Assembly (NCBI RefSeq): GCF_003334355.1
Contig: NZ_QOWP01000006.1
Direction: 5' to 3' (one strand)
Source: Escherichia coli
GTDB lineage: Bacteria; Pseudomonadota; Gammaproteobacteria; Enterobacterales; Enterobacteriaceae
DNA length: 64,000 bases
The notes under the pieces were generated by a model. It was not told where the DNA came from, made no database searches, and saw nothing but the letters and a program-made list of their open reading frames with translations. Below are positions 7,071 through 8,675 of this stretch, in pieces. Every line of letters begins with the position of its first letter. Within the stretch, counting starts at the first letter, position 1. Made by a program: the position numbers and the translations under genes.

Positions 7071-7268
7071 CGTAGTTTTTCAATAGCTACACCATGTCAC
7101 GTAACATGATGCCTGGATATTAACCAGGGAAAGATCATCAGAAGTTCACTTTTTGTACTAAATAATTCGCATTTTATGTTTAAAAATTGAGATATTCCTT
7201 ATTACCTGAAGCTGTTTTTTATTGCTTATACATGATCAAATACTTCTTACATAATTAAGGAGAACAAA

Positions 7269-8405
7269 ATGGAACTTAAAAAATTGATGGAACATATTTC
7301 TATTATCCCCGATTACAGACAACCCTGGAAAGTGGAACATAAATTATCGGATATTCTACTGTTGACTATTTGTGCCGTTATTTCTGGTGCAGAAGGTTGG
7401 GAAGATATAGAGGATTTTGGGGAAACACATCTCGATTTTTTGAAGCAATATGGTGATTTTGAAAATGGCATTCCTGTTCACGATACCATTGCCAGAGTTG
7501 TATCCTGTATCAGTCCTGCAAAATTTCACGAGTGCTTTATTAACTTGATGCGTGATTGTCATTCTTCAGATGATAAAGACGTCATTGCAATTGATGGAAA
7601 AACGCTCCGGCACTCTTCTGACAAGAGTCACCGCAGGGGAGCGATTCATGTCATTAGTGCGTTCTCAACAATGCACAGTCTGGTCATCGGACAGATCAAG
7701 ACGGATAAGAAATCTAATGAGATTACAGCTATCCCTGAACTTATTAACATGCTGGATATTAAAGGAAAAATCATCACAACCGATGCGATGGGTTGCCAGA
7801 AAGATATTGCAGAGAAGATACAAAAACAGGGATGTGATTATTTATTCGCGGTAAAAGGAAACCAGGGGCGGCTAAATAAAGCCTTTGAGGAAAAATTTCC
7901 GCTGAAAGAATTAAATAATCCAGAGCATGACAGTTACGCAATGAGTGAAAAGAGTCACGGCAGAGAAGAAATCCGTCTTCATATTGTTTGCGATGTCCCT
8001 GATGAACTTATTGATTTCACGTTTGAATGGAAAGGGCTGAAGAAATTATGCGTGGCAGTCTCCTTTCGGTCCATAATAGCAGAACAAAAGAAAGAGCCAG
8101 AAATAACGGTCAGATATTATATCAGTTCTGCTGATTTAACCGCTGAGAAATTCGCCACAGCGATCCGAAATCACTGGCACGTGGAGAATAAGCTGCACTG
8201 GCGTCTGGACGTGGTAATGAATGAAGACGACTGCAAAATAAGAAGAGGAAATGCAGCAGAATTATTTTCAGGGATACGGCACATCGCTATTAATATTTTG
8301 ACTAATGATAAGGTATTCAAGGCAGGGTTAAGACGTAAGATGCAAAAAGCAGCCATGGAGAGAAACTATCTGGCGTCAGTCCTTGCGGGGAACGGGCTTT
8401 CGTAA
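7269..8405 (+). mobile_element. ISAs1-family transposase (H-repeat-associated protein, YhhI-like)
   Basis: 378-aa [35 protein letters not shown] matches Rhs-associated H-rpt proteins as recalled; adjacent to an Rhs element; element ends not mapped. Confidence 0.8.
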
Positions 8406-8675
8406 TCTTGCCCTGCCTGCTCACCTCCTCCAGGCACTTCCACTACATGATGACCTGCTCGGTGCCACCGCTCCTTTTCACTATGACGTTAACCTCCCCG
8501 TCCCAGGACACCATGCTTTTGTCTACATTCTACGCAAACGGCAACTTTTATAACCAGTGTAAAAATAACGTGCCGCAATAGTCATACCTATTAATGGTAA
8601 AAAGCTGTCACAATTCATAAAAAACCTTAATATACGCCACCCTAAACATAACCAGCGTTAATGTAAGGTTTTTGT

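Follow-up and report, generated by a model that had tools for sequence, protein, structure and literature searches.

H-repeats (H-rpts) have reportedly been known as companions of Rhs elements since the early 1990s, from descriptions said to be those of Zhao and colleagues in 1993 and of Hill and colleagues in 1994. In the 64,000-nucleotide stretch of an Escherichia coli genome analysed here, referred to as the window, such an element is positioned between an island of vgrG and PAAR-Rhs genes and the gene nfrB. An earlier note on this DNA had proposed that the element is probably a trace of the way in which the island was put together or brought to its place beside nfrB. The question raised by the locus is whether the element was the vehicle of the island or a resident of it. 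The element itself is of an already known kind, an ISEc1/H-rpt at a documented Rhs locus. It is our conclusion, held with a probability of about 80%, that the ISEc1 of the window is an old resident and not the vehicle of the island, and that it constitutes the right-hand breakpoint of an orphan toxin/immunity array.

Identity and termini of the element

Copies of the element were searched for by megablast, using window positions 6900–8700 (1.8 kb) as a query against 5,426 complete E. coli genomes. The query, which contains the H-rpt and its flanks, was matched in all 5,426 genomes, with a median of five matching places per genome. The homology to copies at other loci, including yhhI adjoining rhsB and ydcC adjoining rhsE, is confined to positions 7124/7125–8415, and the bounds of the element are therefore set at 7125–8415 on the plus strand. 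The range of 7100–8450 given in the earlier note correctly brackets these bounds. The copy of ISEc1 (ISAs1 family) is complete, with a length of 1,291 bp and a GC content of 0.395, and its components are the following:

7125–7135, plus strand: left terminal inverted repeat CAGGGAAAGAT, at which every one of the six nfrB-locus left junctions starts exactly
7269–8405, plus strand: intact transposase open reading frame of 378 residues with an ATG start, identified from the list of open reading frames, Pfam, and NCBIfam
8405–8415, minus strand: right terminal inverted repeat CAGGGCAAGAT, which overlaps the transposase stop codon by one base

Local BLAST aligned the full length of the element (1–1291) to twelve other E. 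coli copies and to the copy of the closest genome, NZ_CP104681. The twelve other sampled copies are 95.5–98.5% identical to that in the window; eleven of them are 1,291 bp long and one has 1,290 bp. The K-12 elements H-rptB (yhhI, downstream of rhsB) and H-rptE (ydcC, downstream of rhsE) are ISEc1 copies with the same 1,291 bp, terminal repeats, and 378-residue open reading frame; the window copy is 98.1% identical to the K-12-type yhhI copy and 96.9% identical to K-12 ydcC. It also shares with the K-12 H-rpts the placement at the distal end of an Rhs element, adjoining core-genome DNA. Unlike them, it is located between cusS and nfrB, a site without an H-rpt in K-12, and its protein is twelve amino acids away from the consensus of the copies.

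The sequences CAGGGAAAGAT and CAGGGCAAGAT form an imperfect inverted repeat of 11 bp, in which ten of eleven bases are identical. The degenerate terminal pattern CAGGGMAAGAT occurs three times in the 64-kb window, compared with 0.05 occurrences expected by chance. Terminal repeats of the ISAs1 family are reportedly given as 14–22 bp in ISfinder, and those in the window have 11 bp. The earlier note had suggested aligning the element with other H-rpt copies to map its inverted repeats and target duplication, and had named a lack of terminal repeats or of additional copies as what would speak against it. Both repeats and copies are present; target duplication was not found at the window copy, where the flanks ...GGATATTAAC on the left and CCTGCTCACC... 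on the right do not repeat each other. Furthermore, CCTGCTCACC is absent from the ends of all six left-flank variants of the nfrB locus described below. The missing duplication points to later rearrangement, and is not evidence against membership of the element in ISEc1 and the ISAs1 family.

The right-terminal 20-mer of ISEc1 occurs exactly in genomes of other Escherichia, and of Citrobacter, Pseudocitrobacter, Oceanisphaera, and Oceanimonas. In Oceanisphaera (loci L036–L038 and L022–L023), identity is 89–92% over the last 36–38 nucleotides and about 70% over the remainder of the ISAs1-type elements; the terminus is thus far better conserved there than the remaining element. The Oceanimonas loci (L051–L057) provide identity of the 20-mer only.

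Transposase of the window copy

The earlier note had described a complete ISAs1/H-rpt transposase of 378 residues, and Pfam and NCBIfam models bear this out. Residues 8–93 match PF13808 (DDE_Tnp_1_assoc, E 6e-32), residues 102–343 match PF01609 (DDE_Tnp_1, E 5e-30, model positions 3–200 of 200), and the NCBIfam equivalog NF033564 (transpos_ISAs1) is matched with 406.5 bits relative to a cut-off of 70. The window copy shares with the ISAs1 family, whose founder is ISAs1 of Aeromonas salmonicida, a single DDE transposase composed of PF13808 and PF01609 and short terminal repeats, and it belongs to the size class of about 1.2–1.5 kb with one open reading frame filling most of the element. The residues D109, D172, and E306, which are candidates for the DDE triad, are invariant in 14–15 homologues with identities down to 65% and are retained in the window protein. 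A search for solved structures related in sequence to the transposase gave no match.

The 378-residue open reading frame is preserved in all twelve full-length copies compared, and dN/dS is mostly 0.03–0.23 among the other copies. By contrast, it is 0.10–0.48 in pairs that include the window copy. Five of the twelve residues that set the window transposase apart from the consensus are at positions conserved throughout the family, in an alignment with homologues down to 65% identity: W93L, E147K, G189C, R359Q, and D364E. Of the eight nucleotide changes seen in the window copy alone, five are nonsynonymous. This pattern suggests that constraint on the window copy is relaxed and that the copy may be impaired. 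Variable sites form a mosaic across the ISEc1 copies, and the copies from the nfrB locus do not cluster, a sign that copies have undergone gene conversion or recombination with one another.

The island extends beyond the element

Rhs elements at b0570–b0569 have been listed previously as rhsW3 of E. coli W and EcolC_3079 of Crooks (PMC3032704, Table 6). They occupy the same locus as the island in the window and, like it, contain an Rhs gene followed by C-terminal tips (PMC3032704). The H-rpt junctions of these elements are undescribed in PMC3032704, and the content of the orphan array varies by strain.

The description of the H-rpt as a companion of an Rhs island in the earlier note is correct. 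A vgrG fragment, a DcrB-like gene, and a PAAR-Rhs gene are located upstream of ISEc1, and nfrB is downstream. NCBIfam matches confirm VgrG, PAAR, YD-repeat, and Rhs-core sequences in the window. The closest genome, NZ_CP104681 (L001), is 99.7% identical across 1.8 kb and has the order cusR, cusS, IS1, vgrG, DcrB-like gene, PAAR-Rhs (frameshifted), two small open reading frames, ISAs1 transposase, nfrB (frameshifted), nfrA, and ybcH. The GC composition is that of a classic Rhs composite, with 0.60 in the core, 0.33 in the C-terminal, immunity, and orphan region, and 0.40 in the H-rpt. The segments that flank the element are the following:

5725–7124, plus strand: AT-rich region (GC content 0.33) of Rhs C-terminal, immunity, and orphan-remnant sequence on the variable left side of the IS
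8416–8533, unstranded: island-specific remnant of 118 bp between the right end of the IS and DNA shared with K-12, delimited by alignment to K-12
8534–8675, plus strand: native upstream region of nfrB, intact and identical to K-12 according to the same alignment

In K-12, cusS and nfrB are separated by 149 bp and there is no island. The alignment to K-12 resumes at window position 8534, so that 118 bp of island-specific DNA separate the IS from the true edge of the island. The placement of the element at the island boundary in the earlier note is therefore approximate: it is near the edge, yet 118 bp inside it. The remnant is a single-copy, unannotated sequence, which is present in 2,669 of the 5,426 genomes with an identity of 85–100%. 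A search for it in other species, by scanning GTDB species representatives with a conserved 19-mer of the remnant, returned no matches. The possibility that it is a displaced 3′ end of cusS was rejected, since the score of the local alignment equals the mean of shuffled sequences.

The opposite boundary of the island is located inside the last codons of cusS, because CusS ends in FVIMLPERE in the island-bearing NZ_CP104681 (L001, positions 2950–3000) and in FVITLPA in K-12. No H-rpt sequence was found between cusS and vgrG of the closest genome, in which the cusS-proximal side contains only IS1. One H-rpt copy is present in the 64-kb window, and one in the 25.8-kb locus of NZ_CP104681. With a single H-rpt and island ends that do not match the IS ends, the island is not bracketed by H-rpts. 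A composite transposon, with two H-rpts around the island and a shared outer duplication, is thus not what the locus contains; there is one copy, the island runs 118 bp past the IS, and a duplication is missing.

Several genes of the locus are damaged. The PAAR-Rhs gene (1274–5724) is split into two open reading frames, with the break at approximately 3343–3391. An additional sequence of about 58 bp is present at window position 3343–3351 in the three nfrB-locus genomes that span the site (L009–L011; L012 and L013 do not reach it), which identifies the main Rhs effector of the window as a pseudogene. The PAAR-Rhs protein has only about 34 residues beyond its DPLGL motif. The short open reading frames in the AT-rich DNA at 6432–7070 resemble a single gene broken by frameshifts, which is unannotated in the closest genome and is possibly a decayed immunity or orphan module. 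Instead of forming one gene of 745 residues, nfrB of the window is divided into overlapping open reading frames at 8676–10244 and 10241–10912. The lineage probably lacks a functional NfrB, because the gene is frameshifted in the closest genome as well. An Rfam scan of positions 5600–8800 produced no match, and the counts of promoter-like and terminator-like sites do not exceed those of shuffled sequence. Between the end of the transposase open reading frame and nfrB, the plus strand has no terminator-like site.

A conserved right junction and variable left junctions

The right junction, in which the H-rpt is followed by the 118 bp and nfrB, is present in 2,481 of 5,426 complete genomes (about 46%). 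Only 535 of them have the left junction exactly as in the window. The left flank of the window without the IS had no match in the spread sample of the left-junction search, and an empty site, with 300 bp of the left flank joined to 300 bp of the right flank, is contiguous in none of the 5,426 genomes. The diversity of left junctions has been characterized in six genomes, comprising the window and five that were fetched with the same right junction; they were picked from the spread of matches and are not a census. The six genomes have six distinct left junctions at the nfrB locus, each of which breaks at base 1 of the IS. In ET245 (L009), the IS adjoins the main PAAR-Rhs gene, cut at the equivalent of window position 4605. 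The IS adjoins short internal fragments of the Rhs core in EC-1639, R1, and 50579417 (L013), corresponding to window positions 2698–2877, 2931–3179, and 4079–4290, respectively. In strain 144, it adjoins a zincin-toxin/immunity module.

The combination of a common right junction with varied left junctions indicates that the element is a long-term resident, and that the array has been truncated or replaced repeatedly on its left. The proposal of the earlier note that the element marks the assembly of the island holds only in a weaker sense: at least six different left-hand arrangements of the orphan array break at the terminus of the IS, so that the element has shaped how the island is organized internally.

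In 50579417 (L013), a break also occurs at the right terminus of the IS; the first 71 bp of the remnant are deleted, with the deletion starting exactly there. In 153 genomes (L017 type, NZ_CM163380), 2.4 kb of AT-rich DNA (L017 positions 2609–5000) is positioned between an H-rpt and the 118-bp remnant, and the array contains two H-rpts in direct orientation at the same locus. The open reading frames of the 2.4-kb insert matched no NCBIfam family. At the junction 5000/5001 of L017, DNA other than the IS adjoins the remnant at the very nucleotide where the IS does in the other type; therefore, the breakpoint could have causes beyond the IS of the window. The bases just before the remnant in L017 read CAGGGGAGATCAT on the other strand, which resembles the terminal repeat of ISEc1.

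In one genome (L018, NZ_CP148507, positions 4248–5006), only an IS1 separates cusS from the final 112 bp of the remnant. The entire vgrG/Rhs island is gone together with the H-rpt, lost through an IS1-associated deletion.

Mobility of ISEc1

It has been stated that transposition of H-rpts was never observed (PMC3032704). In CREC_5 (L005, NZ_CM129825, positions 2991–4301), the H-rpt upstream of vgrG is a recent insertion with an exact duplication of 10 bp, GCCCGACATG, at its two ends. The corresponding uninterrupted site, with one copy of GCCCGACATG, is found in more than 3,300 genomes, most of which are at least 99% identical. The duplication together with the widespread empty site provides evidence of natural transposition of this sibling of the window copy. 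The comparison of filled and empty sites thus indicates that ISEc1 transposes in nature and generates a 10-bp duplication. The duplication of about 10 bp that characterizes the ISAs1 family is seen here in a sibling ISEc1, and is absent at the window copy. It was detected at one of approximately 20 insertion sites examined. A search for further duplications using the right-end 20-mer across species covered 40 loci, mostly fragments at contig ends, and identified none among the few complete copies.

Evolution of the locus

The preferred explanation involves the following steps. Elements of this kind move by means of a DDE transposase, which binds the terminal inverted repeats of approximately 11 bp, and their insertion creates a 10-bp target duplication. 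The window copy is probably not a recent insertion; its site is fixed and is located 118 bp short of the nfrB-proximal end of the vgrG/PAAR-Rhs island between cusS and nfrB. The original target duplication has probably been erased as the DNA on the left was repeatedly replaced or deleted up to the IS terminus, which would explain why it is missing.

Breaks exactly at IS termini are characteristic of events catalysed by the transposase. The diversity on the left, the right-side deletion of the L013 type, and the missing duplication are best accounted for by one of two routes. In the first, intramolecular transposition would cause an adjacent deletion. In the second, another H-rpt would insert into the array, and recombination would follow between the two direct copies. 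Support for the second route comes from the mosaic of variable sites and from those arrays of this locus that contain two direct H-rpts; the sequences fit both routes, and either may have operated.

It is rather unlikely that the element is an inert, decaying IS, and that the variation of its left flank is the product only of Rhs-core recombination and unrelated deletions. The published statement that transposition was not seen (PMC3032704), the five substitutions at sites that are conserved in homologues with as little as 65% identity, the raised dN/dS of the window copy, and its missing duplication are consistent with such a passive relic. However, random deletion and recombination would not be expected to break six left junctions, as well as the L013-type right junction, at IS termini. 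Moreover, the open reading frame is intact in every full-length copy with dN/dS well below 1, and the sibling copy has a clean duplication with an empty site.

That the H-rpt assembled the island or moved it beside nfrB, for example as one side of a composite transposon or by taking Rhs genes along in a one-ended transposition, is very improbable. The distance of only 118 bp from the island end, the habitual association of H-rpts with Rhs elements, and the capability for transposition indicated by the sibling copy would agree with a role as a vehicle. By contrast, both the window and the 25.8-kb locus of the closest genome have a single copy, with IS1 alone on the cusS side; the right end of the island is 118 bp past the IS; the left boundary in the last codons of cusS is without an IS end; and there is no target duplication. 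In addition, the island end has no adjoining H-rpt in 153 genomes. As regards movement to the site beside nfrB, the suggestion of the earlier note is not supported, given the missing duplication, the missing second copy, and these 153 genomes.

Selection of the element for a host function, such as that of a homology arm for swaps of toxin/immunity cassettes or of read-through into nfrB, is hardly credible: the identical site and orientation in 46% of genomes, the purifying selection on the open reading frame across copies, and the lack of a plus-strand terminator-like site ahead of nfrB would be in line with domestication, but the island is absent from about half of E. coli genomes, the intact native upstream region of nfrB makes a new promoter unnecessary, and nfrB itself is frameshifted in the window.

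The reading of the element as a resident breakpoint can be extended to a more far-reaching one, which we consider doubtful. The nfrB-proximal H-rpt might be an active, selectively tolerated anchor that trims and swaps the orphan Rhs array through transposase-mediated deletions or recombination between H-rpts. IS activity, beyond Rhs-core recombination alone, might then be a main driver of the turnover of the type VI secretion system effector repertoire at this locus.

The element in the window is by itself of little importance. The pair of filled and empty sites of ISEc1 contradicts the common remark that mobility of H-rpts was never seen. The recognition of the IS as a fixed breakpoint of a variable toxin/immunity array, and not as the vehicle of the island, would be useful for reading the diversity of Rhs loci.
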